DNA of 55,779 bases, taken from assembly GCA_023255625.1 (NCBI GenBank), contig JAHFLF010000004.1, positions 1-55,779 on the forward strand. The letters are read 5' to 3'. The stretch comes from Candidatus Harrisonbacteria bacterium. GTDB lineage: Bacteria; Patescibacteriota; Minisyncoccia; UBA6257; 1-14-0-10-44-23. Each line of letters opens with the position of its first letter. The first letter of the stretch is position 1. The notes beneath the pieces are model-generated. The model ran no database searches and had not been told where the DNA came from. It saw only the letters and a program-made list of their open reading frames with translations. The position numbers and the translations under genes are program-made. Shown piece after piece: positions 5,706 through 55,779 of this stretch.

Positions 5706-5712
5706 ATATTGA

Positions 5713-6070: not shown

Positions 6071-6100
6071 CCCCTCAGTCTAGCACTCCTAATGGTGGCT

Positions 6101-6141: not shown

Positions 6142-6162
6142 AACCCGTTATTCCGTAACAAG

Positions 6163-6495: not shown

Positions 6496-6543
6496 ATCAA
6501 TAGTCGCTGAATCAGTATCCTCTCAATCCCTGAGGACGATTCA

Positions 6544-8444: not shown

Positions 8445-9878
8445 ATGGAAATGACTCCGCGAAAACAACAACTTCTAGATTTCGTAAATACCTATCGCTT
8501 GCGCCGTGGTTTTGCGCCATCAATTCCGGAAATTGCCAAAAAACTCAAACGCGCGCCATCTACAATTCACCAGCACTTGGAAGAGTTGCAAGCCGGCGGG
8601 CACATTAATAGAGAAAAAAATCAGCCCCGTAGTGTTGCTGTTGTGGAGCGGCAGCAAATGGTCAGCGTTCCCCTGCTGGGCACTATCGCAGCTGGTGCAC
8701 CTCTGACTTTATTCGATATTCCTAAAGAAACCATTGCTGTTCCAAAAAATAAAATACCAGCAGCATCAACAATCTATGCTCTCCGTGTATCTGGAAACAG
8801 CATGATTGACGAAAATATTAACGACGGAGATATCGTTCTAGTTAAACAGCAAGAAACCGCCGAGAACGGACAGAAGGTGGTCGCGTTAATCGACAATCAA
8901 GAGGCCACACTGAAAAAATTCTATAAAGAGAATGGCCGCATACGACTTCAACCGGCGAACAAAACCATGGAGCCATTAATCTTCAGGAACGGTCGGGATG
9001 TTTCGATACAAGGCATCGTGCTTGATGTTATCCGTGAAGAAATAAGACCGACCGTACAAATTTATGCGCATCAAGAGACTAAAAAATATAAAGAATTGCC
9101 GCTAAATAAGATTCTTTGCGGTGATGCAGTTGAAATTTTGAAAAAAATCCCATCAAACTCCATAGACTTAGTTGTCACTTCTCCACCCTACGATGATATC
9201 AGAATGTATAACGGTTTTTCCATAAACCTACCAGCGGTAGGAAGGGAACTGAATCGTATTTTAAAAAATGGCGGAATTGCCGCGATGGTAATTCAAGATG
9301 CAACTCGTAATTTCGGGAAAACATTAACATCTTTTAAGACAATCATAGATTGGTGCGACAATGCGGGCTTTAAACTCTTTGAAACTGCAATCTATAGAAA
9401 ACACGGCACGGAAGGGGCCTGGTGGACAAAACGATTCCGTGTTGATCATGAATATATGCCAATTTTTCTGAAAGGCGACCGTCCTGGCTACTTTAATAAA
9501 GAACCGCTGAAAATACCTTCTAAGCATGGGGGTAAAACAATGACTGGCAGCGGCAATCGACGAACAGATGGGACGACAACAAAAACAGTTAGGAGAGAAA
9601 TAAATAGCATGAAGTGCAGGGGCACAGTCTGGGATTATCTGAATGCTGGGGACAAAAACCCGCTCAAAAGAAAACACCCGGCAACCTTCCCGGATAAAAT
9701 TCCAACTGACTTTATACAATGCTTCTGTCCGCCGGGAGGGGTTGTGCTTGACCCATTTATCGGATGCGGATCAACCGCTGTTACAGCGAAAAAATTAGGA
9801 AGGAATTATATCGGCATTGATATATCCCAAGAATACTGTGATCTTGCTAAAGAGCGCCTTAGCACAGACGCTAGCTAA
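8445..9878 (+). CDS. LexA (wHTH + S24 autopeptidase) fused to a beta-class N4/N6 DNA methyltransferase
   Basis: N-terminal part: LexA wHTH IPEIAKKLKRAPSTIHQHLEELQAGGHI, cleavage site GTIAAGAPL, Ser in RVSGNSM, Lys in EATLKKF. C-terminal part: motif IV DLVVTSPPYDD, then motif I LDPFIGCGSTAVTAKKLGRNYIGIDI. The frame is continuous. The ORF-track start at 8388 is TTG, so ATG 8445 is preferred. Confidence 0.85.
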   Translation: MEMTPRKQQLLDFVNTYRLRRGFAPSIPEIAKKLKRAPSTIHQHLEELQAGGHINREKNQPRSVAVVERQQMVSVPLLGTIAAGAPLTLFDIPKETIAVPKNKIPAASTIYALRVSGNSMIDENINDGDIVLVKQQETAENGQKVVALIDNQEATLKKFYKENGRIRLQPANKTMEPLIFRNGRDVSIQGIVLDVIREEIRPTVQIYAHQETKKYKELPLNKILCGDAVEILKKIPSNSIDLVVTSPPYDDIRMYNGFSINLPAVGRELNRILKNGGIAAMVIQDATRNFGKTLTSFKTIIDWCDNAGFKLFETAIYRKHGTEGAWWTKRFRVDHEYMPIFLKGDRPGYFNKEPLKIPSKHGGKTMTGSGNRRTDGTTTKTVRREINSMKCRGTVWDYLNAGDKNPLKRKHPATFPDKIPTDFIQCFCPPGGVVLDPFIGCGSTAVTAKKLGRNYIGIDISQEYCDLAKERLSTDAS

Positions 9879-33800: not shown

Positions 33801-34797
33801 CGGCCGGGAATGACTCGTGCTGGAAATAAATAATATCGCCAAGAGCGGGCCCAAAATAACTTCCATTAAAGAAGATTGGATTGGTGGCGCTAGAAAACAT
33901 GAAACTACTGACGCCAGCGGTCGGGAATTTGGCGAAGCGGGAGCTGGCGGCATAGGTCGGGGCAGAAGAAGGCACGATGTTGACATTGTTGAAGTTCGGA
34001 TTAACGGCGATCGAAACCGGCGAGCCGGCCGCAGTCATAGTGATATTGCTCGGCGTAAGCGTCGAAGGATCCATCTGTTCGGAGAAGCCGACACCGATGA
34101 AAGCACTAATCGGAACATTCGTGGAGTTATTCTGCGGTCCGGTCATACTGAAGTCCACTGTCGGCGCGGCAGTATCAACCGTAATCATACTGCTAGTTGC
34201 CGCCAAAATAGTCGGAGAGCTGGTGCTGGTAATAATGCCATCTGCCGGAATTGTTGCTTTGAAAGTTGTACTGTTGGTCAAACCGGAACTATCGGGTTTA
34301 ACTACAACATAAAAAATCTGACCGGTAGCCAGGGTCGTTGTGCTGCCCGGGGTTAGAGTGAAAACATTGGATGCAGCATAGACCGGACTGGCGGCCAAAG
34401 TTATCTGCGTATCGGCTGCGGCCGAAAAACCGGTGCCGGCGGTCTCTCGCCAAAGTTGCACGCCGCCATTTGTCGTTGCCAGGTCGGCCAATTCAGAAGA
34501 GCTAGCGGCAGTATTGTTCCAGGTCGGTGAACCGCTTTGGCCGGTAAACCGAACTTTGACTCCGGTCAGCGCCTGCGTATCTTCGTCGCTACCAATCGTA
34601 ACTTTCAAAACTGCGGCAGAGCTACCACCCTGCTTAAAGAAGACACCGCCAAAGGTCGGATCTGAAACTACCGAGACCGCTGCTCCAGCAAAATGAACGG
34701 CGACCAAACTACTAATAAAAAGAGCGGACACTAAAATTAAAAGTGCCGCCCTGACTACCGAGTAACGAGAAACACCAAACGCATTTTGCGTGTCCAT
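27805..34797 (-). CDS. Giant (2330 aa) cell-surface protein: SbsA/Big_5 Ig-like repeats, carboxypeptidase-regulatory-like repeats, FN3, and two C-terminal peptidoglycan-binding domains
   Basis: N-terminal signal anchor. Big_5-type segments (DTAAPTVDFSMTGPQNNSTNVPISAFIGVGFSEQMDPSTL). At least five CarboxypepD_reg-like units (ITGYVRDSAGTGISGVQVFARP and others). FN3 (VRLAWDSVSGANSYDVYQS ... YYFKVSALN). Tandem PG_binding_1 (NDVVALQNILEAKGFLKMPAGIAKGYFGNATMKALMQYQ, two copies). Confidence 0.9.
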   Translation of the reverse strand: MDTQNAFGVSRYSVVRAALLILVSALFISSLVAVHFAGAAVSVVSDPTFGGVFFKQGGSSAAVLKVTIGSDEDTQALTGVKVRFTGQSGSPTWNNTAASSSELADLATTNGGVQLWRETAGTGFSAAADTQITLAASPVYAASNVFTLTPGSTTTLATGQIFYVVVKPDSSGLTNSTTFKATIPADGIITSTSSPTILAATSSMITVDTAAPTVDFSMTGPQNNSTNVPISAFIGVGFSEQMDPSTLTPSNITMTAAGSPVSIAVNPNFNNVNIVPSSAPTYAASSRFAKFPTAGVSSFMFSSATNPIFFNGSYFGPALGDIIYFQHESFPAELGIVTNATQTSGTFSVNGTTLFGGQQLIKVAAATQTGLVTAIDPAFKVGDLVVVKTATNSGDTTRTNWHVVTTAGAISSSTLRFDGGSGAPTYPTAARYSLAASTASSTSVLAVSQGDLVFANVGTTTYSWHLATTAGDLSADATSTAVLDGNSTTTSRVAGGSVMVRLATTVQAAVTDNVLALANGDIVFAKATANASPLNTYSFHLVSGPGTISSANLRFDNSVSPLTTNTAYVVTVGPAVSDKAGNALGTTSTVSFTTGATGGTNIAPPFVQSTAPNSGSQSHPINAPIKLTFSQAMGSSALSSSNVTLYTDNFGAPGTPITATRSLDAASTTLTVTPSSNLTASTGYILKVGTTTLSYTGTALNNTYFLNFKTPAGSADSSHPTANGVFPSAGATAVKRNTIVCSGMSKDIDASTVTASTVTLSGSIAVNVSYSPNSRTICASPTSQLASNTTYTFTITSGVTDIIGNALDADSGTGGNQNFTSTFTTDSATDSTGPSVTFGNADNFGAAITFSEPMQSGGGANAADNISNYTVESPVGTSISLSGKTVTYDGMMMAARISGLSLTTGATIKITASTALQDLAGNAILTTGTPAANTTQFTVANSNTTGGCLNCGTSQQNPNQAGTMPIRATPTNRSAGATSNYEFEFPVSQVVPLGGKILVTFPVGFDVTNAVAATVGTESFANGDLNGPNTGTITIGSVAVNASARTITVTTAGAASTANDFLRFTLKGIVNSTAPSSNGYTVTILTQDTSSVTKENMTSNPFYLGQSGSAVVVLNVFVDNGAGGATAGDNIKSGTEAGVANIRAFLGSPASGGIEATSGANGTTTFSGLAVGDYMLGIAPDSVAAAGDYVFNSAPQPISISSGTTTKNLGLTAAAFTIAGTITGPANTKVDVFASSPSGFTKKTGTTNGGGTFAYSLPVNASTTYQVGVGPAMPPMTPGQAAPPAPTFTFMPPPNITVQVLGANITGKNFTLTAAGKTITGYVRDSAGTGISGVQVFARPTEGSTTGGGGSSVGFGTSAQTQTDGSFTLNVVAGNYLVNANKPGMPFVPDLAISVPTSGTNVPASLSFVMAISTSGLTISGTVKDDGGNAISYAGVSAEKITSTSDTTSLGGGAQNFVGGPTDSAGSYTLYVSAGTWRVSAFAPGFGKLGTKTITVGTTAVTGQDFSAATVTFGTITGSVTKGGVAQQGANVRAEGDNGGNMATTDASGAYSIKVPPGSYTVSCFIPGVGDSVVTGSVTVSANTTTSGKNCAPGASLTVVVGLTDGTTGITNAFVDARDTNGRGNGTNVSVASGTLAVYTLQLSPGTYTIRAAHPAFGPIGAQSNVNTSTTLSFTATAGTQRTVAGTVTANASNVEGAWVSLTGTPAGQTNKIHIGTQTASNGTYTLTVPDGSYDLRADKQGLKSPAESSVTVAGANLTAQNVVLTTASRTITGTVTIGGSGVSQAFVDATDGAGGFAVSQTDSTGAYSLAVDNGTWTVRGHADGYNSDGVPVTVNSNSPSGIAVALTAISGYTPKPLQQQTFTPASGGQFTNNDIGSGFKLTMPPASAGSDTNPSTIATKPTTNVPKPTTGSVLTKNAVTVNVTNSSGQEVSSLNSDVTITVPYTAADLPTGVSESSIQLGYWNESANSWTTLPTTVDTVNDVLTATVSHFSDFAPLIPSDPTAPETPASITATALNATTVRLAWDSVSGANSYDVYQSSSQGGTYARVGSEPTVGNQNGYDVTGLTNGSTYYFKVSALNAGGNESAASSAVSVTLTAASIGGGGSTSGGGGGGGSYGTAVTIPTSPSVTANTPSAVSLAQQLATLQLQLQARQQVGAVSAGIFTRMLKTGSEGNDVVALQNILEAKGFLKMPAGIAKGYFGNATMKALMQYQTSVGLEAVGYAGPGTRAALSTEAGGSTSVSAPAPAATVSGSYTFTVMIKTGAENADVIALQNILEAKGFLKIPAGTAKGYFGNATKQALMKYQESVGLEAVGYVGPGTRAALNTGR

Positions 34798-45826: not shown

Positions 45827-45937
45827 AATTTTCAATTTCTAATTTTTAATTTTCAAACAATGACTTAATGTCTAATTTCAAAATTTTTAAATTGAAAATT
45901 GTTTAGAAATTAGAAATTGAAAATTAGAAATTTATTT
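45827..45937. repeat. T element copy 1 (AT-rich, about 100 nt, imperfect long hairpin)
   Basis: aattttcaatttctaatttttaattttcaaacaatg ... attgtttagaaattagaaattgaaaattagaaattt. It fills the whole spacer from the exonuclease stop (45938) to the rnhA ATG (45826). Confidence 0.85.
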
Positions 45938-46486
45938 TTAAAATTCCAATAATTTTAAAAATACCCGGTAGGTTGTCCGCGCATCATCCAGCGCGCGGTG
46001 CTGCGTGCCCGGATCAATCTGGAAATGCGACGACATCTCGGAAAGCGAAAATCTTTTAAACTTCGAATTATTTCGAAGTTTGCTCCAGCCGAGCGAAAAT
46101 GTATCCAGTCCTTTGTAGAAATAGTTTGGTTTTAATCCGCACTCCTCTAAAGATTTTTTTAAAAACATCATGTCTACGGCCAAATTTTGGCCAACCAGCA
46201 TACAACCCTCTGTGTGCTGTAAAAATTGCTCCAAGCCGGTTTTTAGATCTACCGCCTCGGCCCAATCCGGTTTATTGTATCCGGAAATCGCCAGCGCCTC
46301 TGAATTAGCATCCGCCAACCGCACGGGCTTTATCTTAATCACACCCTCCTCAATGACTTCAAAAGTGCCGGCCCGCGCTTTAACAAAACCAATCTCAACT
46401 ATTTCGTGTTTCAAATCCAAACCGGTTAGTTCAGTATCGAAAAAAACCAAGTCCATTTCCTTTACATCAATTTTGTCTTTTTCCAT
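45938..46486 (-). CDS. DnaQ-like 3'-5' exonuclease (DEDDh)
   Basis: ExoI LVFFDTELTGLD, ExoII MLVGQNLAVDMMFL, ExoIII HRALDDARTTYRVF. Confidence 0.85.
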   Translation of the reverse strand: MEKDKIDVKEMDLVFFDTELTGLDLKHEIVEIGFVKARAGTFEVIEEGVIKIKPVRLADANSEALAISGYNKPDWAEAVDLKTGLEQFLQHTEGCMLVGQNLAVDMMFLKKSLEECGLKPNYFYKGLDTFSLGWSKLRNNSKFKRFSLSEMSSHFQIDPGTQHRALDDARTTYRVFLKLLEF

Positions 46487-46500
46487 TTTGTTATCTGTCT

Positions 46501-46538
46501 TAACTAACTAACCAACTAACTAATTAACCAACTAACTC
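46501..46538. repeat. Stop-codon-rich (aactaacc)n-like spacer containing the pgk stop
   Basis: taactaactaaccaactaactaattaaccaactaactc. The 13-mer aaccaactaactc is identical to 48433-48445. The minus strand reads TAG/TAA in all three frames. Confidence 0.6.
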
Positions 46539-47653
46539 TTAGTACCCTTGAGTGCCTCCACCCCAGGCAACTTCTTGCCGCCGAGCACGGCTAGCATAGC
46601 TCCGCCGCCGGTTGAGAGAAAATCAAACTTGTCCGTCATTCGCGACTGCACAATAAATTGGATAGTCTCGCCCCCACCAACTACTGAAAACGCTTTACTT
46701 TTTGCAATTGCTTTTGCGATTAGTGCCGTTCCGGCTCGATACCGGGGATCTTCAAATACACCCATTGGCCCGCTCCAGATAATAGTCTTTGCACCCTTGA
46801 TAACCTCTGTAAATTGCCGAACGGTTAATGGCCCAATATCACAAATCTTACCGGTTTCGCCAACGATCCAGTCTACCGGGACGATGACCTTTTTATCATG
46901 CAAGCTTTTTTTAACTGCCGGCAAAATCGAGGTGTCAATTTTTGAATAACCGATATCAACTCCGCGGGCGTGCAAAATAGTATTGGCGGCTACGCCGCCA
47001 ACCAAAAAATGCTCCGCCTGGCTGTGCAAATTTTTGATGACCATAAACTTATCGTCGGCCTTGCCGCCACCGATAATAACTACCAGTGGCTTGGCCGGAT
47101 TTTTCATCACCCGATTCAGCTGTTCCATCTCCTTGAGCAACAAAAAACCGGCGTAGGAGGGCAGCAATTTGGGTAGTTCGGTTATTGAGGCGCTCGGATG
47201 ATGGTTGACGGCAAATGCATCATTAACATAGATATTGCCAAGCGAAGCGAGCTGTGCGGCAAATGCCTTCTGCGCGCCTGGCTGCGTAGACTGTTCTCCG
47301 GATAGAAACCTCATATTCTCCAGCATAAATAAACTGCCGGGCCGGGCGGCCCCAACCTGGGCTCGGATATGATCAAAATTAAAATGGTCAAAGAGCATAA
47401 TGCTCTGGCTGGCCCGCCGGCGCAAAAAAGGGATCATTGCGCGCAAACTTAGCTCTGGCATAACCGTGCCATCAGGCCGGCCGCGATGACTTAATAGAAT
47501 GACGCGTGCTTTTTGTGCAAGTAAATATTTGATCGTAGGCAGCGAACGCTCCAAACGCAGCACCTCTTTAGGCGTTTCAACATTAAAATCAACCCGTACT
47601 AGAACGGTCTTACCAGAAAGATTTTTCAGTGTTTCAACAGATTTAAGAGCCAT
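46532..47653 (-). CDS. pgk: Phosphoglycerate kinase
   Basis: GKTVLVRVDFNV, ILLSHRGRP, VIIGGGKADDKF, GGVAANT and FLSTGGGAMLAVLGGKKLPGVEAL. Confidence 0.95.
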   Translation of the reverse strand: MALKSVETLKNLSGKTVLVRVDFNVETPKEVLRLERSLPTIKYLLAQKARVILLSHRGRPDGTVMPELSLRAMIPFLRRRASQSIMLFDHFNFDHIRAQVGAARPGSLFMLENMRFLSGEQSTQPGAQKAFAAQLASLGNIYVNDAFAVNHHPSASITELPKLLPSYAGFLLLKEMEQLNRVMKNPAKPLVVIIGGGKADDKFMVIKNLHSQAEHFLVGGVAANTILHARGVDIGYSKIDTSILPAVKKSLHDKKVIVPVDWIVGETGKICDIGPLTVRQFTEVIKGAKTIIWSGPMGVFEDPRYRAGTALIAKAIAKSKAFSVVGGGETIQFIVQSRMTDKFDFLSTGGGAMLAVLGGKKLPGVEALKGTKS

Positions 47654-47787
47654 GAGTAATCGCTAATACGCGAATAGCTAATAATGCAAATCGGACTATT
47701 GATAGTATAGCAAATCATATTCAAAAAGTCGTCAAAAATATCAAAAAACATGCAAAATAGGCGTTTCTAACTACTTGACAGCTTTAC

Positions 47788-47817
47788 TTGACAAATGAGC
47801 ATAAAGTATGGTATAAT
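47788..47817 (+). promoter_or_regulatory. Near-consensus promoter with extended -10, driving the GC-rich unit 47824-48192
   Basis: TTGACA (47788-47793), 18 nt, TGgTATAAT (TG 47809-47810, TATAAT 47812-47817). A second TTGACA is at 47775-47780. Confidence 0.65.
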
Positions 47818-47888
47818 ATATAAACGCCGAGTAAGCACTGTGCTGAACGGCAAGGTGGGGCTTATGCCCCCTCTCGGAGGGCTCGCTC

Positions 47889-48131
47889 ATGACGAAGTTC
47901 GGATGGCTCGTCTTCGCCGTCGCTGCGACGGCGCTCGTTCTCCCGTTCAACAAGACCGCCTTCCTGGCGGCAGTCGCGGTGGCGCTTGCGTGCGCCGCGA
48001 TCGCGGGCGCCACGAAGCGCCGGCTCCCGGCGAGCAGAAACACGATGGAGCTGGCTTTCGCGGGGTTCATCCCGCTGGCCTGCTACATCGCGGGCTCCTT
48101 GCCCACGGCCCTACCGGTATTCATCCGGTAG
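47889..48131 (+). CDS. GC-rich orphan protein 3: 80-aa hydrophobic membrane protein
   Basis: ATG preceded by GGAGGG at 7 nt. Strong G/C third-position bias in this frame only. Sequence MTKFGWLVFAVAATALVLPF ... AVAVALACAAIAG ... FIPLACYIAGSL. Followed by a canonical terminator. Confidence 0.55.
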   Translation: MTKFGWLVFAVAATALVLPFNKTAFLAAVAVALACAAIAGATKRRLPASRNTMELAFAGFIPLACYIAGSLPTALPVFIR

Positions 48132-48156
48132 CGTCAGCGCCACGACACGGCGCAGT

Positions 48157-48192
48157 TCTGGTCGGTCTCCGCGAGGAGACCGACCAGATTTG
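48157..48192 (+). terminator. Canonical intrinsic terminator of the GC-rich unit
   Basis: 14-bp perfect stem tctggtcggtctcc / ggagaccgaccaga, GCGA loop, then tttgtttat. Confidence 0.8.
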
Positions 48193-48209
48193 TTTATATT
48201 AAAACAGAT

Positions 48210-48391
48210 GAGATTCCTCGGCTTCGGAATGACGGCAAAGATGGATTGCCGCGGAGTACCTCGCAATGACAAGCGGGGCGAGATTCTTCGCTGCGTTCAG
48301 AATGACCACCCTCCTTCGCTAAAGCTACGGAGGGCAAGCATGAAAATGGGTTGCCAAAAACATTCCCGGGCGCGCCAGTCGGCGCGCCCGG
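48210..48391. repeat. Cluster of short hairpin repeats (gagattc.tcg...ggaatgac type, ccctcc...ggaggg type, and an 11-bp GC palindrome)
   Basis: gagattcctcggcttcggaatgac (48210-48233), gagattcttcgctgcgttcagaatgac (48280-48306), ccctccttcgctaaagctacggaggg (48309-48334), ccgggcgcgcc-agtc-ggcgcgcccgg (48366-48391). Confidence 0.55.
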
Positions 48392-48410
48392 ACATTGATT
48401 TATCTTTTTA

Positions 48411-48445
48411 CCAACTAACCAAATAACTAAGCAACCAACTAACTC
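48411..48445. repeat. Stop-codon-rich (aactaacc)n-like spacer downstream of secY
   Basis: ccaactaaccaaataactaagcaaccaactaactc. Shares the 13-mer aaccaactaactc with 46526-46538. Confidence 0.55.
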
Positions 48446-48453
48446 CCCCCCCT

Positions 48454-49725
48454 CTACCCGATGGCATCGTACTCTCTTATCGTTAACTGTGAATTAACCT
48501 GACGGGCGATTTCCAGCGCAACTGAAACCACAATTAAGAGTGCCGTACCGCCGATAGTAAAGCTCTGGATGCCGCTAAAAATCTGCACCAGGTTCGGCAG
48601 AATGGCCACGATGCCCAAAAAGATTGCTCCAAAAAAAGTAATCTTTCCGCTCGTGCTCTTTAAAAAGTGTTCGGTCGGTTCACCCGGGCGGATGCCTGGT
48701 ATGAAACCGCCGGACTGCTGCAGGTTCTTGGAAAGTTCGCCCGGATTAAAGGTGATCGAGGTGTAAAAATAAGTGAAGGCAACCACGAGCACGAAATAGA
48801 TCGCAGCGTAAATGCTCTGATTGTTGAAAATGCCCGAAACAAAATTTTGTAAGGTGATTGAAAGATCCACGGAAAAAACCGAAATTAACTGGGCAAATAG
48901 TTGCGGGAAAAGCATAATCGAAATCGCGAAAATAATTGGAATTACGCCGGCCTGGTTAACTTTGAGCGGCAGATAGCTAGTTACGCCGCCATACATTTTG
49001 TTACCCCGGACCCGTTTGGCATAGGTAACCGGCACCTTGCGCTCGCCCTCGCTAACAAAGACTACGCCGGCGATTACGACTACGGCGATTAAAGCAAAGA
49101 TAATATAAGTAACCAGCATCTCGTCGGTATAGCTGAAAAAAAGTTTTTGAATGACCTGCGGCAAACGGGAAACAATGCCGGCAAAGATAATCAAAGAAAT
49201 GCCGTTGCCAAGTTTCTGCTCGCTAATCAGCTCACCGATCCACATTAATATGCAGGAGCCGGCGGTAATCACGACCAAACTGGCAATTAACTGAAAACCG
49301 GCCAAAGTCGGTAGTACTCCCTGATTCGCCAGCAAATTTAAAAACGCATAACCCTGAACTAAAGCCAGCGGCACAGTTAAATAACGAGAGTATTGATTAA
49401 ATTTCTGACGGCCGAGCGCGCCCTCCTCGTAGTAAAGCTGCTTCATGCGCGTCGACATCATGGTCATGAGCTGCATGATAATCGAACCGGTAATATAGGG
49501 GCCCACGCCAAGCATCATAATCGAAAGGTTGGAAAGACCGCCGCCGGAGAAAAGGTTCAAAAAACCAAGCAACTGGTTCTGGCCAAGTACCGAGGCCAGC
49601 TGGGCCGCGTCAATACCCGGAACCGGAATGGTTGCTAAAAGACGAAAGCCGATCAAAAGTCCGGCCACAATGAAAACTTTTTTGCGGAGCTCGGGAATTC
49701 GGAAGAGTTGGAGGAATTTATTCAT
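48454..49725 (-). CDS. secY: Preprotein translocase subunit SecY
   Basis: 423 aa, 10 TM segments, GIDAAQL, LFSGGGLSNLSIMMLGVGPYITGSIIMQL, GGFIPGIRPGEPT. Confidence 0.97.
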   Translation of the reverse strand: MNKFLQLFRIPELRKKVFIVAGLLIGFRLLATIPVPGIDAAQLASVLGQNQLLGFLNLFSGGGLSNLSIMMLGVGPYITGSIIMQLMTMMSTRMKQLYYEEGALGRQKFNQYSRYLTVPLALVQGYAFLNLLANQGVLPTLAGFQLIASLVVITAGSCILMWIGELISEQKLGNGISLIIFAGIVSRLPQVIQKLFFSYTDEMLVTYIIFALIAVVVIAGVVFVSEGERKVPVTYAKRVRGNKMYGGVTSYLPLKVNQAGVIPIIFAISIMLFPQLFAQLISVFSVDLSITLQNFVSGIFNNQSIYAAIYFVLVVAFTYFYTSITFNPGELSKNLQQSGGFIPGIRPGEPTEHFLKSTSGKITFFGAIFLGIVAILPNLVQIFSGIQSFTIGGTALLIVVSVALEIARQVNSQLTIREYDAIG

Positions 49726-49824
49726 AAATTTTCAATTTCTAAGTTTCAATTTTCAAACAATGATTTAATTTCGGAATTTCTAAATTGGAAATTGTTTAGA
49801 AATTAGAAATTGAGAATTAGAAAT
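49726..49824. repeat. T element copy 2
   Basis: aaattttcaatttctaagtttcaattttcaaacaatgatttaatttcggaatttctaaattggaaattgtttagaaattagaaattgagaattagaaattta. It spans exactly from the L15 stop (49825) to the secY ATG (49725). Confidence 0.88.
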
Positions 49825-50241
49825 TTATTGCACTTTCCCGCCGGCCGTCTCAATCGCCTTCTGGGCCGACTTCGAAACAGAAATTCCGGCCAAAGTAACT
49901 GGCTTCTTTAGCTCACCATTGGCTAAAACCTTAACCGGTTGGCCACGCTTTGCATAACCAGCCGCAACGATTGACGCCAATGTTACCGGCGATGCCTTAA
50001 TTTTTCCCAGCATCGGTAATGTCAGGATGGCAGCCGGAAGCTCCATCGGCTTATTGGCATATCCGCGCAGTTTCGGCAGCCGCTGAATATATTCGCGCAT
50101 GGCCGGACGAATTCGGTGACCGGAGCGCGACTTTTGACCCTTAGTACCCTTGCCGGCGGTTGTCCCGCGTTTACCACCTCGGCCCACGCGGGCTCTTTTG
50201 TCTGCGTTCGCGTTTTTTGGTTTTAACTGGTGAAGTTGCAT
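49825..50241 (-). CDS. rplO: 50S ribosomal protein L15
   Basis: MQLHQLKPKNANADKRARVGRGGKRGTTAGKGTKGQKSRSG. Confidence 0.93.
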   Translation of the reverse strand: MQLHQLKPKNANADKRARVGRGGKRGTTAGKGTKGQKSRSGHRIRPAMREYIQRLPKLRGYANKPMELPAAILTLPMLGKIKASPVTLASIVAAGYAKRGQPVKVLANGELKKPVTLAGISVSKSAQKAIETAGGKVQ

Positions 50242-50256
50242 AGAATTTTAAAAAAC

Positions 50257-50284
50257 TTAGAACTGATAACTAAGAACTGATAAC
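50257..50284. repeat. Tandem 14-nt repeat spanning the rpsE stop
   Basis: ttagaactgataac / taagaactgataac. Inverted relatives gttctaagttctaagttcttag at 50319-50340 encode the S5 C-terminal tail (KNLELRTK). Confidence 0.55.
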
Positions 50285-51067
50285 TTTTGTTTCGACTTTT
50301 CCTGCTTCCCCGTCCTTTGTTCTAAGTTCTAAGTTCTTAGTTTGTTTGCGCGGCTTGAGCATCTTTAGCGCCTCATAAGTTGCGAGCGCGTTAGTAACCT
50401 GGTTCGGCGTGCGCCCGAGCGTCTTAGCCGTAATGTCTTTGATACCGGCTAGCGCCAAAACCGCCCGAGCCGCACCACCGGCGACTAATCCGTGTCCATC
50501 CTTAGCGGGCTTTAAACGGATGCAGGCAGCTGAATATTTTGCCTCAACTTCATGCGGGATTGTCCGCTTAGAAAGTGGCACGGTAATCACATGCTTACGC
50601 GCATCCCGCTGTGCCTTCGCGAGTGCCTGCTGCAGGTCGATTCCCTTACCCATGCCAACTCCTACTCGGCCTCGTAAATCACCAATGACGATAGTTGCCC
50701 GGAAACGAAATCTTTTACCGCCGGCCATAACACGAGCAACGCGACGCATATCTAAAGTCTGCTCCTGGAATTCATCTTTTTTCACAAATGGCCGATTGCC
50801 GCCCGGACCACCCGGACGACGCGAACCGCCTGCTCCACCGCCAGGACCGCGACCTGCGCCGCGCCCGCCTCCGGCTTGCCCGCCTCTGGCGGGACCACGG
50901 CCGCTGGCTTGCCCGCCTCTGGCGTGGCCAAAAGCTGGCCGTGCTGCAGGGGCTGCAGGCGCAGAAGAAGCTGCGGCGGGGACGGCTGACTGCTGGACTT
51001 GCCCTCCTAAATTTCCTCCGGAAACTTTGGCGGGTGAAGTATTCTGTTGTGGGTTAACATCTTCCAT
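50270..51067 (-). CDS. rpsE: 30S ribosomal protein S5 with a Gly/Arg/Pro/Ala-rich N-terminal extension
   Basis: Core RVARVMAGGKRFRFRATIVIGDLRGRVGVGMGKG ... GLVAGGAARAVLALAGIKDITAKTLG. The ATG at 51067 (MEDVNPQQ) is preferred because the TTG at 51193 runs through repeat R1 and into rplR. Confidence 0.92.
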   Translation of the reverse strand: MEDVNPQQNTSPAKVSGGNLGGQVQQSAVPAAASSAPAAPAARPAFGHARGGQASGRGPARGGQAGGGRGAGRGPGGGAGGSRRPGGPGGNRPFVKKDEFQEQTLDMRRVARVMAGGKRFRFRATIVIGDLRGRVGVGMGKGIDLQQALAKAQRDARKHVITVPLSKRTIPHEVEAKYSAACIRLKPAKDGHGLVAGGAARAVLALAGIKDITAKTLGRTPNQVTNALATYEALKMLKPRKQTKNLELRTKDGEAGKVETKVISS

Positions 51068-51073
51068 ATTTTT

Positions 51074-51114
51074 TATTCGTACTTTCGTGATTTGATTCGT
51101 TATTCGTAGCTCTC
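51074..51114. repeat. R element copy 1 (L18 to S5 spacer)
   Basis: tattcgtactttcgtgatttgattcgttattcgtagctctc. The adjacent cta at 51114-51116 is the rplR TAG stop. Confidence 0.85.
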
Positions 51115-51482
51115 TAAAACTGTAGCCCTCCCGCTCGAGCTCCTTCGGCGAGTGCCCGAACCTGTCCATGGTAAGCATATCGTCCGCGATCAAACACGAC
51201 TGTCTTTACTCCCTGCTTAATTGCGCGTTCGGCAACAATCTTGCCAAGCTCAACTGCGCGATCAACTCGCGCACCCGGAACTTTTGATTTGACGGCTTTA
51301 ATCTCGGAAAGTTTGGCCGAAGCAACCGTCTTGCCCAAAGAGTCATCAATGACCTGCGCGTACAAATTCTGATTGCTGCGATAAACAGAAAGACGCGGGC
51401 GACGCGCAAAACCCTTAAGATGCCCGCGAATGCTGTGGGCGCGCCGAGCTCGAGTCTGATTTTTTTTGATGCTTCTTTTCAT
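51114..51482 (-). CDS. rplR: 50S ribosomal protein L18
   Basis: RARRAHSIRGHLKGFARRPRLSVYRSNQNLYAQVIDD ... VVFDRGRYAYHGQVRALAEGARAGGLQF. Confidence 0.95.
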   Translation of the reverse strand: MKRSIKKNQTRARRAHSIRGHLKGFARRPRLSVYRSNQNLYAQVIDDSLGKTVASAKLSEIKAVKSKVPGARVDRAVELGKIVAERAIKQGVKTVVFDRGRYAYHGQVRALAEGARAGGLQF

Positions 51483-51517
51483 GTTTCTTGTTTATCTTTT
51501 TATTTTATAGCTTATGC

Positions 51518-51578
51518 GATATGCTGACCAGTTGTGCGAGGATAGAACCCCGTTCCTCGCGCGACTGGCCAGCATATC
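51518..51578. repeat. Family-1 hairpin F in the L6 to L18 spacer: 24-bp stem (3 mismatches) around the core cgagg-atagaaccccgtt-cctcg
   Basis: Arms gatatgctgaccagttgtgcgagg / cctcgcgcgactggccagcatatc. The 25-nt core gcgaggatagaaccccgttcctcgc is identical to the reverse complement of the D core. Confidence 0.8.
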
Positions 51579-51587
51579 AGCGTTCCG

Positions 51588-52130
51588 CTATGCTGCTCCC
51601 GCCACCTTCTTACCTTCCTTACGCCGGACCTGTTCGCCAAGATAACGGATACCCTTACCCTGATACGGCTCCGGTTTTTTAAATTGACGAATCTTCGCTG
51701 CGGTCTGTCCGACAACCTGCCGATCAATTCCGGAAATTGTAATAAAACTTTTTTCCAAAACGATTGTAATTCCGGCCGGCGGGACAAATTTGATCGGATG
51801 AGTAAAACCGAGCGCCAGAACGAGCGTCTTCCCCTCCATCGCCGCTTTGTAGCCAATACCCTGCACATCCAGCTTCTTTTCAAAACCGGTAGTAACGCCA
51901 GTAACAGCATTGCTCAAATGCGCAGCCATTGTACCCCAATTTGCCCGTGCTTGCACCTGCGTCGTGGCAACCGTCAAGGTCAGCACTCCACCCTCAAGAT
52001 GTACTTTGACATAAGGAAGAATCGGCACGACGAGTGAGCCGTTCTTACCTTTGATAGTAACCGCCGTTTCGTTAACGGTTGCGGTTACGCCCTCGGGCAA
52101 TGCAATTGGTTTTTTTCCGATCTTACTCAT
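51588..52130 (-). CDS. rplF: 50S ribosomal protein L6
   Basis: MSKIGKKPIALPEGVTATVNETAVTIKGKNG ... KKPEPYQGKGIRYLGE. Confidence 0.95.
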   Translation of the reverse strand: MSKIGKKPIALPEGVTATVNETAVTIKGKNGSLVVPILPYVKVHLEGGVLTLTVATTQVQARANWGTMAAHLSNAVTGVTTGFEKKLDVQGIGYKAAMEGKTLVLALGFTHPIKFVPPAGITIVLEKSFITISGIDRQVVGQTAAKIRQFKKPEPYQGKGIRYLGEQVRRKEGKKVAGAA

Positions 52131-52140
52131 ATACTTTTTT

Positions 52141-52179
52141 TATTCGTACTTTCGTAAAAATTCGTTATTCGTAGCTCTA
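52141..52179. repeat. R element copy 2 (S8 to L6 spacer)
   Basis: tattcgtactttcgtaaaaattcgttattcgtagctcta. Its terminal cta is the rpsH TAG stop. Confidence 0.85.
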
Positions 52180-52557
52180 CCAGATTTCAAATAGCAACTG
52201 TCCTCCAACCTTTTGCTTGCGCGCCTGGCTACCGGTCATAATCCCCTTTGGGGTAGAGATAACCGACATGCCAAAACCCTGCTTGACCGGGCGCAAATCT
52301 GCATAACCAGAATACAGACGACGGCTGGGCAGACTCAAAAACTTCATACCGCCAATCGCCCCTTTCTCGCTATCATATTTCAAATCAACTTCCAGGACGC
52401 GCTTGGGTGTGCGCCCTTTCTTAGCGACACCGGCGACAAAACCACGAGCAGACAGAAGTTCGGCAATTTCAAAATCCATATTCGAATAAGGGAGCTTCAC
52501 GCTCTGCTTCTTTGCCTTCTGGGCATTCTTCAATTTTGTAAGGAGATCGATATACAT
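52177..52557 (-). CDS. rpsH: 30S ribosomal protein S8
   Basis: MYIDLLTKLKNAQKAKKQSVKLPYSNMDFEIAELLSARGFV ... GGQLLFEIW. Confidence 0.95.
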   Translation of the reverse strand: MYIDLLTKLKNAQKAKKQSVKLPYSNMDFEIAELLSARGFVAGVAKKGRTPKRVLEVDLKYDSEKGAIGGMKFLSLPSRRLYSGYADLRPVKQGFGMSVISTPKGIMTGSQARKQKVGGQLLFEIW

Positions 52558-52666
52558 AGTGTAAAATTTTCAATTTCTAATTTTCAATTTTCAAACAATG
52601 TTTTTAAACATTGGGAAATTTTCAAATTAGTTCATTGTTTAGAAATTAGAAATTAATCATTAGAAA
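52558..52666. repeat. T element copy 3 (S14 to S8 spacer), central part divergent
   Basis: ..aaaattttcaatttctaattttcaattttcaaacaatg ... cattgtttagaaattagaaattaatcattagaaa. It spans from the rpsZ stop (52667) to the rpsH ATG (52557). Confidence 0.85.
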
Positions 52667-52852
52667 TTACCAAGAAGCTTTCTTAACTCCCGGAATCTGA
52701 CCGCGGCTGGCAAGCTCGCGAAAACAGATACGACAGATACCGAAGAGCCGCATGAAACCATGTTTACGCCCGCAACGAAAACAACGCCGCACAATCCGGC
52801 TGCTAAACTTGGGCGTCTTATTTGCTCTTGCAATAACTGATTTCTTAGCCAT
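52667..52852 (-). CDS. rpsZ: 30S ribosomal protein S14, type Z (zinc-binding)
   Basis: 61 aa with [23 protein letters not shown] (CxxC ... CxxC). Confidence 0.93.
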
Positions 52853-52862
52853 ACTTGTTTAC

Positions 52863-53390
52863 TTACTTGTTTGCACTTGTGCTACTTTTTACTTTTTTTA
52901 CCTCCTTCTCAAACGGTATGCCTAATCCCTTATAGAAGACAACGGCCGCCGCATTGTCCATGCGCTGTTTCGGAACTACGGTAACCTCTATTCCAAATGG
53001 CGCACGAACCTTCTCCAGCACAATCTCCGGATATACTGTGTGCTCTCTAATGCCAAAGGTCAAGTTGCCATCCCGATCAATTCCAGAAATTTTGATACCA
53101 TGAAAATCGCGGACACGCGGCAAAACTATCGATACGGTACGCGCCACAAACTGACGGGCCCGAGCTCCACGCAAAGTACTCTTCAAACCAATGACAACGC
53201 CTTCGCGCAGCTTGAAACCGGAAATAGAAATACGCGCAGGCCGCTGCTCGCCCTTCTGCCCGGTGATAGCCGCAAACTGCTCTTCAATTTCCGGAAGAAG
53301 TTTGCCAACAAAGTCGGGCGTGTTGGTAGCCAGCTTGCCAAAGCTGCTGTTCACGACCACCTTTTCAATTGTATTTTGAATCGTTTTCAT
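52863..53390 (-). CDS. rplE: 50S ribosomal protein L5
   Basis: KVVVNSSFG ... ITGQKGEQRPARISISGFKLREGVVIGLKSTLRG ... LPRVRDFHGI ... GNLTFGIREHTVYPEI. Confidence 0.95.
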   Translation of the reverse strand: MKTIQNTIEKVVVNSSFGKLATNTPDFVGKLLPEIEEQFAAITGQKGEQRPARISISGFKLREGVVIGLKSTLRGARARQFVARTVSIVLPRVRDFHGIKISGIDRDGNLTFGIREHTVYPEIVLEKVRAPFGIEVTVVPKQRMDNAAAVVFYKGLGIPFEKEVKKVKSSTSANK

Positions 53391-53414
53391 AATCTCTTTC
53401 TTATATTCGCGGAA

Positions 53415-53642
53415 CTATTTAACCATGACATTACTTCGATCAATCGGCCTGGCAATGCTAACCATCTGACCCTTCTCGCCCTGCTTAGTCGCCCGCTTGT
53501 GTCTCTTGACCATATTAATCCCCTCAACGAGCACTTTATTTTCTTTTGGAAAAACACGAATTACCTTACCGCTCTTGGTGCGGTCTTTTCCTTTCAGAAT
53601 AAGGACGGTGTCTCCTTTTTTAATGCTCATTTTCATATTCAT
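53415..53642 (-). CDS. rplX: 50S ribosomal protein L24
   Basis: KOW motif IKKGDTVLILKGKDRTKSGKVIRV. Three in-frame ATGs (53642, 53636, 53630) exist, and the true start may be 53630 (MSIKKGD). Confidence 0.9.
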   Translation of the reverse strand: MNMKMSIKKGDTVLILKGKDRTKSGKVIRVFPKENKVLVEGINMVKRHKRATKQGEKGQMVSIARPIDRSNVMVK

Positions 53643-53646
53643 ATTC

Positions 53647-53686
53647 TATTCGTACTTTCGTAATATATTCGTTATTCGTAGCTCTA
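53647..53686. repeat. R element copy 3 (L14 to L24 spacer)
   Basis: tattcgtactttcgtaatatattcgttattcgtagctcta. Its terminal cta is the rplN TAG stop. Confidence 0.85.
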
Positions 53687-54052
53687 CACTACCTCCTCCG
53701 CTAAAGTAAAAATCTGCTCAAACCCCTTCTCCTTGATCTCACGGGGAATTGGTCCGAAAACACGCGTGCCTTTCGGAACCTTCTTGTCGTCGACAATCAC
53801 AACTGCATTTTCATCAAAACGGATGACCGTGCCATCGGAACGGCGAAGCGGCGCAGCCGTCCGTACAACAATACACTTCACGATATCCTTCTTCTTAATG
53901 GCCTTGCGCGGTTCTGCCTGCTGCACCGAAGCATTAACCATGTCGCCCAGTTTTGCATAACGCTTGCGGCTGCCGCCGTAAACCGTAAATACACGAATAA
54001 GTTTCGCGCCGGTGTTATCTGCAACTTTTACAACTGAACGAATTTGAAGCAT
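53684..54052 (-). CDS. rplN: 50S ribosomal protein L14
   Basis: MLQIRSVVKVADNTGAKLIRVFTVYGGSRKRYAKLGDMV ... IRFDENAVVIVD. Confidence 0.96.
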   Translation of the reverse strand: MLQIRSVVKVADNTGAKLIRVFTVYGGSRKRYAKLGDMVNASVQQAEPRKAIKKKDIVKCIVVRTAAPLRRSDGTVIRFDENAVVIVDDKKVPKGTRVFGPIPREIKEKGFEQIFTLAEEVV

Positions 54053-54058
54053 ATCTTT

Positions 54059-54328
54059 TTAGTTTGCTAAATTATCAACTTCCGCAGAGACTGCTTTCTT
54101 AACTAAGCTCACAATCTTAAAATACTTATCTTTCGATAACGGACGCGTCTCCTCTATAACCACTTGATCGCCAGTCTTGTATTCGTTTTTCTCATTGTGT
54201 GCCTTAAAACGCCGAGTTACCGTATAGTATTTAAGATACTTCGGGTGCTTTTTTTGATAAGAAACCGCGACTACCGCAGTTTTCATCATTTTATCGGAGA
54301 CGACAGTTCCGTTCAATTGGCGCTTCAT
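54059..54328 (-). CDS. rpsQ: 30S ribosomal protein S17
   Basis: LNGTVVSDKMMKTAVVAVSYQKKHPKYLKYYTVTRRFKAHNEKNEYKTGDQVVIEETRPLSKDKYFKIV. Confidence 0.94.
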   Translation of the reverse strand: MKRQLNGTVVSDKMMKTAVVAVSYQKKHPKYLKYYTVTRRFKAHNEKNEYKTGDQVVIEETRPLSKDKYFKIVSLVKKAVSAEVDNLAN

Positions 54329-54379
54329 ATAAGTTTTCTATATTAACCTAGAATGAGGATTTTTTCAAGTTTTCTGATG

Positions 54380-54622
54380 TTATTTAACTTTTTTTGCTGC
54401 CCGTGATGGCAAAACAGAAAGCTCACCCTGGCTTTTCGAGTTGGCTGCGGTCAGGATGCGGGCCAAATCCCTGCGTAAAGTCAGACGGGCTTTGACATTC
54501 TTAATCTTGCCGCCGGCAACTTCGCGGCGCACCTGCCAAATTTTCTCACGCATTTCACCGGCCTCTTTCTGCAATTCAGCCGCCGATCGGTTATTCAATT
54601 TTGTGATATCCTGTTTTTTCAT
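54380..54622 (-). CDS. rpmC: 50S ribosomal protein L29
   Basis: MKKQDITKLNNRSAAELQKEAGEMREKIWQVRREVAGGKIKNVKARLTLRRDLARILT. The ATG at 54622 is preferred because the upstream ATG at 54661 lies inside repeat R4. Confidence 0.9.
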   Translation of the reverse strand: MKKQDITKLNNRSAAELQKEAGEMREKIWQVRREVAGGKIKNVKARLTLRRDLARILTAANSKSQGELSVLPSRAAKKVK

Positions 54623-54633
54623 ATTCTTATTTT

Positions 54634-54672
54634 TATTCGTACTTTCGTACAGATTCGGCATTCGTAGCTCTA
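54634..54672. repeat. R element copy 4 (L16 to L29 spacer)
   Basis: tattcgtactttcgtacagattcggcattcgtagctcta. Its terminal cta gives a second in-frame TAG immediately after the rplP stop. Confidence 0.85.
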
Positions 54673-55086
54673 CTAATCTTTCTTAATAAATCGCGTCCGT
54701 AGCGGCAACTTAAAACCAGCCAATCGAAGTGCGGCGCGGGCCTGTGTTTCAGTAACACCGTCCATTTCAAAAAGAATTCGGCCGGGACGAACCGGGAAAA
54801 CATAGTGATCAACAGAGCCCTTACCGCCACCCATTGTAACCTCCGGCGGCCGCTCCGTAATCGGCTTATCTGGAAAAATACGAATAAACACCTTGCCGGC
54901 GCGCTTAACCGAATTAGTAATCGTGCGCCGCGCGGCCTCAATCTGACGAGAATTAACCCAAGCCGAAGAAGTGGCCTTAAGCCCAAAAGTACCGTAAGCC
55001 AGCCGCGTACCGCGCACCTCAATCTGGCGTGTCTTGCGACGGCCTTTCATCCACTTACGATGTTTTACTTTTTTAGGAACTAACAT
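54673..55086 (-). CDS. rplP: 50S ribosomal protein L16
   Basis: [56 protein letters not shown]. Confidence 0.96.
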
Positions 55087-55187
55087 ATGGATAAATTAAT
55101 TTTCAATTTCTAATTTTCAATTTTCAAACAATGATTTAATTTAGGAATTTCTAAATTGGAAATTGTTTAGAAATCGAAAATTGGAAA
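55087..55187. repeat. T element copy 4 (S3 to L16 spacer)
   Basis: ..aattttcaatttctaattttcaattttcaaacaatgatttaatttaggaatttctaaattggaaattgtttagaaatcgaaaattggaaa. It spans from the rpsC stop (55188) to the rplP ATG (55086). Confidence 0.88.
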
Positions 55188-55779
55188 TTATTTTTTCTGT
55201 TTATCTTTCGAAAAAATTAGCCCTTTATATATCCAAACTTTGATGCCAACTGTTCCGTAAGTACAGTTCGCAGTCGCCGTGCCGTAGTCAATGTCAGCGC
55301 GCAGAGTTGTAAGCGGTAATGTCCCCTTGGCCAAAAATTCAGTTCGAGAAATTTCGTTCCCGTCCAAACGGCCACCCATTTTGACCTTAATTCCCTTAAC
55401 ATCCCGATTCTGAAGGGCATTCTCGATCGCCTTCTTCATGGTGCGACGAAATGGCATGCGTTTTTCGATTTCCCAGGCAATACTCTGGGCAACATACGCC
55501 GAAGCAATTTCAGTGCGCTTCAGCTCTTCGATAGTTACGGAAAGATGAATCTTCGGAGCTTTCGGACTCTTCACTTTCTGCAATTTAGAAAGTTCACCGG
55601 TGATTTGTTTGGTCAAATCTTCGATACCGGTACCGCCGCGGCCGATAATAAAACCGGGCCTGGCCGCCTTGATCGCAACTCGATAAGCATTGTTGGCGCT
55701 GCGCTCAATGATCACACTCACAACCCCGGCCAGCTTAATTTTCTCTTCAATAACTCGCCGAATCAAAACATCCTCCTGC
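55188..55779 (-). CDS. rpsC: 30S ribosomal protein S3, N-terminus beyond the window edge
   Basis: KH domain (IIERSANNAYRVAIKAARPGFIIGRGGTGIEDL) and the S3 C-terminal domain (GIKVKMGGRLDGNEISRTEF ... GTVGIKVWIYKG). The frame is open to the window end, so the M at 55766 in the ORF track is internal. Confidence 0.93.
   Translation of the reverse strand, partial: QEDVLIRRVIEEKIKLAGVVSVIIERSANNAYRVAIKAARPGFIIGRGGTGIEDLTKQITGELSKLQKVKSPKAPKIHLSVTIEELKRTEIASAYVAQSIAWEIEKRMPFRRTMKKAIENALQNRDVKGIKVKMGGRLDGNEISRTEFLAKGTLPLTTLRADIDYGTATANCTYGTVGIKVWIYKGLIFSKDKQKK

Follow-up and report, generated by a model that had tools for sequence, protein, structure and literature searches.

T elements are AT-rich hairpin repeats of about 100 nt, four copies of which fill spacers between genes in a 55.8-kb stretch of a Candidatus Harrisonbacteria genome (GenBank assembly GCA_023255625.1, contig JAHFLF010000004.1, positions 1 to 55,779; hereafter the window). 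Our results indicate that T is probably a non-autonomous derivative, free of any open reading frame (ORF) and resembling a miniature inverted-repeat transposable element (MITE), of a family of palindromic elements of the intervening sequence (IVS) type that has spread through the Candidate Phyla Radiation (CPR)/Patescibacteria. The copies in the window were inserted in this lineage, and their loops point to multiplication within this genome. Longer relatives carry a PF05635 gene between the same arms, and other members of the family are found inside protein-coding genes and within 16S rRNA.

Results

Insertion of T elements in this lineage and spread within the genome

A SecY-based scan with one genome per species yielded 80 syntenic loci. 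In the three closest of these (L025–L027, SecY 82–83% identical) synteny with the window extends to the pgk-exonuclease-rnhA neighbourhood, and T elements are missing from all four orthologous spacers. The S3/L16, S14/S8 and exonuclease/rnhA spacers of the three relatives, together with the L15/secY spacers of L025 and L026, are 4–30 nt long (for example, TAAATTTATG), and their S14 and L15 stop codons coincide in position with those of the window. The L15/secY spacer of L027 (9917–10000) contains an unrelated 84-nt palindrome in place of T. These comparisons show that the T copies were inserted in this lineage. The original prediction had judged an intercistronic function of the elements plausible and had named close relatives without elements, and without compensating sequence, as evidence that would speak against it; this is what we observed at three of the four sites, the exception being L15/secY with the palindrome of L027. 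It had also held that a MITE would not respect stop and start codons so exactly. As an argument against mobility this is wrong, given the relatives without elements and the copies in valS, tsaD and 16S rRNA described below. Among the 80 syntenic relatives T elements are rare in this operon. Empty sites were also sought elsewhere: a metagenome scan with a 21-mer of the S14 3′ end matched unrelated taxa only, and exact-protein matches to S14 and L16 returned the same genome only (100% identical).

The source genome was examined over ~65 kb, comprising the window and 10 kb beyond its end (locus L332) on the same 126-kb contig. Past the window end we found a fifth full T copy at L3/L4 and a solo arm at L23/L2. 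The loop is nearly identical in copies 2 and 4 and the L3/L4 copy and was not seen in other genomes; because of this genome-specific common loop, the copies appear to have multiplied in situ. The insertions are clustered, with six T-family insertions in the ribosomal-protein/secY region and none in the other ~45 kb. The stretch from S10 to rnhA contains these six and at least three other hairpin spacers.

The T family across Patescibacteria

Searches with exact arm patterns extended the family to more than 140 loci, 24 of them recovered with the pattern of the B arm (start-proximal in the window copies) and more than 114 with that of the A arm (stop-proximal in the window copies). The hosts include Moran-, Falkow-, Buchanan-, Doudna-, Kuenen-, Harrison- and Zambryskibacteria, Paceibacterota, Absconditabacterales and Peribacteria, and several T copies per genome were present in other metagenome-assembled genomes (MAGs). 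Many of the MAG loci are mutually related. A few T records bear non-CPR labels (WOR-1, 'Gammaproteobacteria', 'Bdellovibrionales'), which may not hold, some MAG labels being doubtful. The labels Gammaproteobacteria, Bdellovibrionales and Saccharibacteria carried by L003, L012, L013, L025–L027 and other 'binchicken' MAGs sit badly with their content. The closest SecY relatives of the window are labelled Saccharibacteria and the next ones Jorgensen- and Wolfebacteria, and the 'Saccharibacteria' label looks unreliable. Statements on the host range of the T family should draw on re-classified genomes rather than on NCBI labels.

We delimited 89 full elements of 88–253 nt (median 119), none with an ORF, plus 89 apparently solo arms. 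The element ends are sharp, AATTT(C/T)... and ...(A/G)AAATT, and conservation stops abruptly there. The arms are ~35 nt long and are built of AATTT(C/T)(T/C) heptamers, with short conserved sub-terminal segments; the loop is variable. Some family members have gained or lost heptamers, and others contain nested GC-rich hairpins or consist of a solo arm. The two arms differ systematically (A = ...TTTAGAAATTAGAAATTGAAAATTAGAAATT; B = ...TTTGAAAATTGAAAATT(A/G)GAAATTGAAAATT), and CT/TC heptamers lie opposite GA/AG, which places a tandem C.A/U.G mismatch in each heptamer pair. Conservation of one arm only was considered, as B was invariant in the loci found by the B arm, and was rejected as an ascertainment artefact when the A-arm search reversed the pattern. 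Among 55 sequences a double change was seen in 1 of 19 consensus pairs, the arms being too conserved in sequence for covariation to be informative. At one locus (L172, 4100–4296) the flanks of the T copy are perfect inverted repeats at the contig end (ccaaagaaaaatatgtgtca ... tgacacatatttttctttgg); the palindrome most likely caused the assembly to fold back here, an artefact that calls for caution with MAG assemblies.

An ORF-bearing relative with a PF05635 gene

Pairs of arms that had appeared solo were found to bracket a gene of 113–119 aa belonging to PF05635 (23S_rRNA_IVP; IVP, intervening sequence protein), at the position of the T loop (L015, L113, L161, L182, L187 and L205). Sub-terminal segments (…AAACAATTTTCAATGATTTAATTT…) are common to the PF05635-bearing and the ORF-less copies. 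A protein-only scan then gave at least 363 PF05635 relatives, of which the best 80 loci were analysed. T arms were present on both sides of the gene in 42 of these best 80 loci, and on at least one side in 16 more, some of them cut by a contig end. In 19 of the 80, which lack a canonical arm, T-like heptamer inverted repeats were detected with scores of 19–42 vs 10.2 ± 2.7 for controls. The PF05635-bearing composites, with a median length of 461 bp, follow closely upon stop codons, and 34 of 39 point the same way as both neighbouring genes, which suggests expression by read-through.

ORF-bearing IVSs of rRNA form a stem from their terminal repeats and encode S23p within the loop; RNase III excises them, and they are considered selfish and horizontally acquired (PMC4990558). 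IVP ORFs have been reported within CPR rRNA insertions (PMC11270868). The PF05635-bearing T composite has the architecture of an ORF-bearing rRNA IVS. To our knowledge, the PF05635 '23S rRNA IVS proteins' have been assigned no function in 30 years, and CPR genomes are rich in diversity-generating retroelements (DGRs). PF05635 proteins, which are Avd-like four-helix bundles, resemble Avd, the partner of the reverse transcriptase in DGRs (PMC10053308). A more far-reaching reading would make them the mobility or maintenance factor of CPR-wide hairpin elements, with T as the protein-less derivative and spread that is perhaps RNA-mediated: hairpin RNA released by RNase III would be copied and re-inserted into transcribed DNA. 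Spread of this kind, if true, would explain the lack of target duplications, the lack of a transposase and the preference for highly expressed operons, and any transcribed site at which a stem is harmless could be colonised, whether an rRNA helix tip, a stop-start junction or a protein loop. We consider this reading rather improbable.

T elements inside genes and rRNA

At one locus (L110), the ORFs of valS (3529–5799, 756 aa) and tsaD (5934–7112) continue in frame through T-derived sequence. The T peptides of valS (...ISNSQFLISKQLENLKFKIENS... and ...NSQFSILNFQKNSKFKIQ...) are insertions relative to the T. thermophilus ValRS (1GAX). In another genome (L106), a T copy (6788–6908) lies within a 165-nt insertion in a 16S rRNA helix loop, at small subunit (SSU) model positions ~1159–1162; judged by location, this copy is an rRNA intervening sequence. 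The valS, tsaD and 16S copies have no connection with a stop or start codon. The window copies are located in mRNA spacers and not at a 16S/23S helix tip, the location of IVSs, and a profile search of the window found no T insertion in frame inside its ORFs. The L110 proteins contain further low-complexity inserts, YKIQNTKY in ValRS and NTKYQIP...QNTKS in TsaD, which suggest another in-frame repeat family.

Structure of the four copies in the window

An arm search allowing ≤3 mismatches identified four T copies in the window (Table 1), with 0 expected by chance in shuffles, and a profile built from 55 family members retrieved those four and nothing else. Four hairpins of ~100 nt had been predicted at these places, and the arms do recur exactly four times; the positions given in the original prediction are those of whole spacers, and the element limits have been refined here. 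By Pfam the flanking genes, all on the minus strand, are DEDDh exonuclease and rnhA, L15 and secY, S14 and S8, and S3 and L16, each pair in the order of transcription. On the transcribed strand the upstream TAA stop is at, or overlaps, the element start in the L15, S14 and S3 copies, as had been proposed for all four, whereas the exonuclease copy starts 5 nt after the stop. The elements end 0 (rnhA), 1 (secY), 7 (S8) and 11 nt (L16) before the next ATG, which agrees with the 0–11 nt reported before. All four copies have the same polarity, with the TTGAAAA-rich B arm beside the downstream ATG; the uniform orientation to transcription claimed earlier holds for these four copies and fails across genomes (71:29).

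The arms of copy 2 form 25 Watson-Crick pairs over 36 positions, exactly the number originally counted, plus 4 G-U pairs, and the other copies form 25–28 Watson-Crick pairs. The minus-strand RNA of each copy folds into one long AU hairpin (z −3.2 to −6.9 vs dinucleotide shuffles), the best of the four being that of copy 4 (−25.1 kcal/mol, z −6.9). No Rfam covariance model matched any T copy, either at the gathering threshold or at E≤5, and no terminator-like site (GC stem plus U-tract) was found at any T copy.

Table 1. Coordinates of the T elements, their arms and other features of the window.
Feature	Position	Strand	Upstream stop	Downstream start	Description
T copy 1	45827..45932	minus	exonuclease TAA 45938-45940, 5 nt from element	rnhA ATG 45826, abuts element	exonuclease/rnhA spacer; 106 nt; nhmmer E 2e-18; hairpin z -4.7
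T copy 2	49727..49825	minus	L15 49825-49827, overlaps element by 1 nt	secY ATG 49725, 1 nt gap	L15/secY spacer; 99 nt; hairpin z -3.2
T copy 3	52565..52668	minus	S14 52667-52669, overlaps element by 2 nt	S8 ATG 52557, 7 nt gap	S14/S8 spacer; 104 nt; hairpin z -3.4
T copy 4	55098..55190	minus	S3 55188-55190, within element end	L16 ATG 55086, 11 nt gap	S3/L16 spacer; 93 nt; distal arm one heptamer short
B arm (start-proximal), copy 1	45827..45862	minus			CATTGTTTGAAAATTAAAAATTAGAAATTGAAAATT on transcribed strand; 97% identity to 36-mer consensus
B arm, copy 2	49727..49762	minus			97% identity to 36-mer consensus
B arm, copy 3	52565..52600	minus			100% identity to 36-mer consensus
B arm, copy 4	55098..55133	minus			100% identity to 36-mer consensus
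A arm (stop-proximal), copy 1	45898..45932	minus			AATTTCTAATTTTCAATTTCTAATTTCTAAACAAT on transcribed strand
A arm, copy 2	49791..49825	minus			found by arm search and profile
A arm, copy 3	52634..52668	minus			91%
A arm, copy 4	55162..55190	minus			shortened, more diverged
D5/D6 repeat	52137-52180; 53644-53687; 54630-54673				weaker copy at 51043-51090
D7 repeat	46488-46538; 48395-48445				upstream of exonuclease ATG; downstream of secY
44-nt repeat	2731-2774; 3102-3145				two copies
205-nt direct repeat	27823-28027; 28102-28306				inside 2330-aa ORF 27805-34797
Terminator-like hairpin	48365-48392				just downstream of secY
S5	50270-51193				directly followed by L15
L15	49825-50241				

Position of T elements relative to genes

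Full elements were located between co-directional genes in 71 of 80 cases, against a baseline of 79%. In the tight co-directional contexts (n=53) the stop offset was −2 to 0 in 32, the stop codon overlapping the first 1–2 nt of the element or abutting it, and the ATG lay 5–12 nt past the element end in 33; the geometry by which the window copies hug stop and start codons thus generalises. The short leader left before the ATG is not conserved, and it is therefore a remnant of the native spacer. The pyrimidine-rich arm carries TAA in all three frames, and a few upstream ORFs run into the element and end at an internal TAA. Orthologous spacers were found with oppositely oriented copies in different species (L204/L214 and L125/L013), which indicates independent hits on one hot spot.

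Hairpins unrelated to T also occupy spacers. Beyond the window, ~100-nt hairpins from different low-complexity families (z −2.6 to −3.8) lie at L2/S19 (L332, 7978–8077), S19/L22 (8426–8522) and L22/S3 (9096–9212). These share the T geometry: the 5′ arm has the stop codon at its base, and 8–10 nt separate the end of the 3′ arm from the AUG. A common filter on what is tolerated or a common mechanism of insertion would each fit this pattern. Yet other palindromes are found in the S14/S8 spacers of metagenome contigs L225, L233/L245, L234, L246 and L230/L247. A Shine-Dalgarno motif is missing upstream of most window genes, and their leaders are AT-rich. An exception is the cluster at 3161–6070, in which three genes have TAGGAGT 8–10 nt before the ATG; this cluster may be foreign or differently expressed DNA.

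A possible route to tolerance of T insertions

We propose that the T copies are co-transcribed with the operon and that folding of the hairpin would bring stop and start, ~100 nt apart in sequence, back together at the base of the stem. Translational coupling could in this way survive T insertion in operons poor in Shine-Dalgarno motifs. The last ~6–10 nt before the next ATG are left untouched by the T copies and, because these genomes are largely without Shine-Dalgarno sequences, the preserved leader and the proximity of stop and start are probably what matters. With TAA in three frames of the pyrimidine-rich arm, insertions in the last codons would still terminate. The tolerated sites, namely a helix tip, a protein surface loop and a stop-start junction, may share a single trait, that a self-folding insert is structurally silent there. 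By analogy with IVSs, and also with Correia elements, the T stem would be a likely substrate for RNase III. Since the hairpin is real and the stop/start geometry generalises, also to unrelated hairpins, a role in, or a consequence for, termination-reinitiation or RNA processing is plausible. Of the intercistronic function first proposed, the hairpin and its geometry are retained, the conclusion that the elements are not mobile is not, and the internal promoter is weak.

Observations against a mobile origin and alternative explanations

Several observations weigh against T being a mobile element of IVS type. At ~85 junction pairs, oriented to transcription, no consistent direct repeat was found that would represent a target-site duplication; the palindromic AATT ends could mask a duplication of 2–4 bp, and a near-identical empty site was not found. 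In about 220 loci, taking the loci only, no transposase was found between T arms. Neither the window nor the adjacent 10 kb contains an IVP gene, and the local copies are therefore non-autonomous with respect to anything in view. A search of 2.9 million viral contigs with three arm patterns gave 0 matches. The loci were found by exact arm matches, which favour well-preserved copies (others were found via the protein), and gene calls in the fetched loci come from a simple heuristic ORF caller. The coupling and RNase III steps of the proposed route are ones that we infer. Across loci, 37 of 52 copies have the B arm on the start-proximal side (71%, p about 0.003, the loci not being independent). 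Some orthologous copies are plainly inherited and surpass the adjacent genes in conservation: the copy between atpA and atpG in L124 and L184 is 99% identical including the loop vs 74–76% for the flanks. A recombination tract around this copy was considered and rejected, the adjacent 60 nt of atpA being only ~60% identical. Such conservation is unlike that of neutral junk and could reflect a host-level function or a very recent site-specific reinsertion; it is the strongest point for host-level constraint, and it is not explained away.

The results at the element termini bear on whether T is a classical MITE, that is, a deletion derivative of an insertion sequence (IS) that keeps the same terminal inverted repeats and is moved by a DDE or HUH transposase in trans. 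The small size, non-coding nature and multiple copies of T, its sharp termini and ~35-nt inverted arms, the insertion polymorphism and the recurrence at hot-spot spacers would all be expected of such an element. However, the ~85 junction pairs show no consistent target-site duplication, all longer elements found with T arms encode a PF05635 protein and none a transposase, and the systematic difference between the arms (CT/TC facing GA/AG) is unexpected for the two binding sites of one transposase. We regard this origin as quite unlikely.

The conservation at atpA/atpG is the kind of evidence expected if T were an exapted cis-acting RNA, kept by the host as a site at which RNase III or another activity processes the transcript and so gives the cistrons independent stabilities, or as a termination-dependent translation device. 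T elements, and likewise the sequence-unrelated hairpins of the same operon, keep a strikingly regular position with respect to stop and start codons. The 71% polarity bias, orthologous copies that are better conserved than the flanking genes, and the confinement of six copies to the ribosomal-protein/secY region, with 0 in the other ~45 kb, point the same way. The three closest relatives nevertheless lack T and have no substitute at three of the four sites, the L027 palindrome being the only one, and T is rare in this operon among the 80 relatives. Both orientations occur, even at one orthologous site, and T is also found in 16S rRNA and inside ORFs. Covariation was not seen, and the arms are kept in sequence rather than merely in pairing. 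We consider exaptation of this kind unlikely.

An internal promoter had also been suggested; in this reading the start-proximal arm (TTGAAA-17-GAAAAT) would drive leaderless or near-leaderless transcription of the downstream gene. A sigma-70-like match of 9/12 is present on the transcribed strand in all four window copies, and the common gap of 6–10 nt puts the predicted start near the ATG. However, this is the sole such match, its −10 hexamer is weak, and it ends 1–2 nt before the element end; with the secY and rnhA ATG 0–1 nt away, the start would be misplaced to the inside of those genes. The other arm is presented by 29% of copies, and copies also occur in rRNA and inside ORFs. Of the IVP versions, 34 of 39 share the direction of the host operon, as expected from dependence on read-through and not on a promoter of their own. 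Promoter activity is thus a very improbable explanation.

Other repeats and features of the window

The D5/D6 repeat fills the S8/L6, L14/L24 and L16/L29 junctions; its transcribed strand reads GTAGAGCTACGAATAACGAAT...TACGAAAGTACGAATAA, and the ATG comes a few nt later. It was considered as a hairpin element like T and rejected, its folding being no better than that of shuffles (z about 0). The D7 repeat consists, on the transcribed strand, of (A/G)GTT tetramers (GAGTTAGTTGGTTAATTAGTTAGTTGGTTAGTTAGTT...) and resembles one arm of the 84-nt palindrome at L15/secY of L027; as a hairpin family it was rejected likewise, with no folding above shuffles by itself (z about 0). The two-copy 44-nt repeat contains the palindrome TATTCGTACGAAT and has a TACGAA motif in common with D5/D6. 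The two units of the 205-nt direct repeat are 80% identical at a spacing of 279 nt, and further internal repeats are found in the same 2330-aa ORF (30836/31139); the 205-nt units probably correspond to repeated domains in a giant surface protein.

The terminator-like hairpin downstream of secY is GC-rich and bidirectional, with 11–12 pairs, nearly all G-C, and T-runs on both strands. No other convincing intrinsic terminator is present in the 45–55.8-kb stretch, and the hairpin suggests that the ribosomal-protein transcript ends there. No L30 gene lies between S5 and L15, in the window or in the longer contig record (L332, 14020–15262). This gene order has been reported for CPR bacteria and agrees with the placement of SecY near Jorgensen-, Wolfe- and Paceibacteria (60–66% identity).

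Discussion

We interpret T elements as ORF-less derivatives of an IVS-type family and, because PF05635 genes and gene-less T elements share arms, rRNA IVSs, orphan PF05635/Avd-like proteins and mRNA palindromes become linked in a testable way. The supposedly streamlined CPR genomes allow several families of ~100-nt hairpins to fill many spacers of their most essential operon. With the stop at the base of the 5′ arm and the ATG 6–10 nt past the 3′ arm, the insertions constitute a natural experiment on termination-reinitiation across a structure in Shine-Dalgarno-poor hosts. On the practical side, T repeats will break short-read assemblies and mislead gene callers (TTG/ATG in the arms, ORFs running in), and they can inflate the apparent length of 16S rRNA. 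Our literature search found no prior description of the sequence, of CPR palindromic or MITE elements, or of PF05635 in such elements, which is not proof of novelty.

Among known systems, the IVSs (S23p/PF05635; Leptospira, Coxiella) are like T in having a stem of terminal inverted repeats with a loop that may be short or may contain a PF05635 gene. They are also inserted where a folded-out hairpin is harmless, and are sporadic, horizontally spread and regarded as selfish (PMC4990558). T differs from them in lying mostly in mRNA spacers or in-frame in ORFs, in its low-complexity heptamer arms and in its many copies per genome. Excision by RNase III is a feature of IVSs, and for T it is predicted by analogy.

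The Correia elements or Neisseria miniature insertion sequences (NEMIS) of Neisseria, and the enterobacterial repetitive intergenic consensus (ERIC) elements or intergenic repeat units (IRU) of enterobacteria, are abundant imperfect palindromes of ~100–150 bp in transcribed intergenic regions that fold in the mRNA. RNase III acts on Correia hairpins, which affect the stability of transcripts, and these elements are associated with a TA duplication and with integration host factor (IHF) and promoter features. Unlike Correia elements, T shows no duplication; T also has a PF05635-bearing relative, hugs stop codons and is unrelated in sequence to both groups. Rickettsia palindromic elements are repeats of ~100–150 bp found in frame in protein genes, in RNA genes and between genes, and we know of no ORF-bearing form. 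T resembles them in its in-frame insertion without disruption of the ORF (valS and tsaD of L110); it differs in host clade and sequence, and in being mostly intercistronic.

The repetitive extragenic palindromic (REP) sequences and bacterial interspersed mosaic elements (BIMEs), which are associated with IS200/IS605-like REP-associated tyrosine transposases (RAYTs), are like T in being intergenic palindromes past stop codons, with no target duplication and with polarity relative to genes. REPs are 20–40 nt long, GC-rich and clustered around the RAYT gene, whereas T is about 3 times longer and AT-rich, and no RAYT or TnpA was seen next to T in the fetched loci. With MITEs, T shares its small size, non-coding nature and multiple copies, its terminal inverted repeats and its insertion polymorphism, and it differs in showing neither a consistent target duplication nor a transposase partner in the loci analysed. 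With IVSs it shares the stem of complementary termini and the optional PF05635 ORF, while the copies in the window lie outside rRNA. We therefore file T as an IVS-type hairpin family with MITE-like, ORF-less derivatives that colonise operon spacers.

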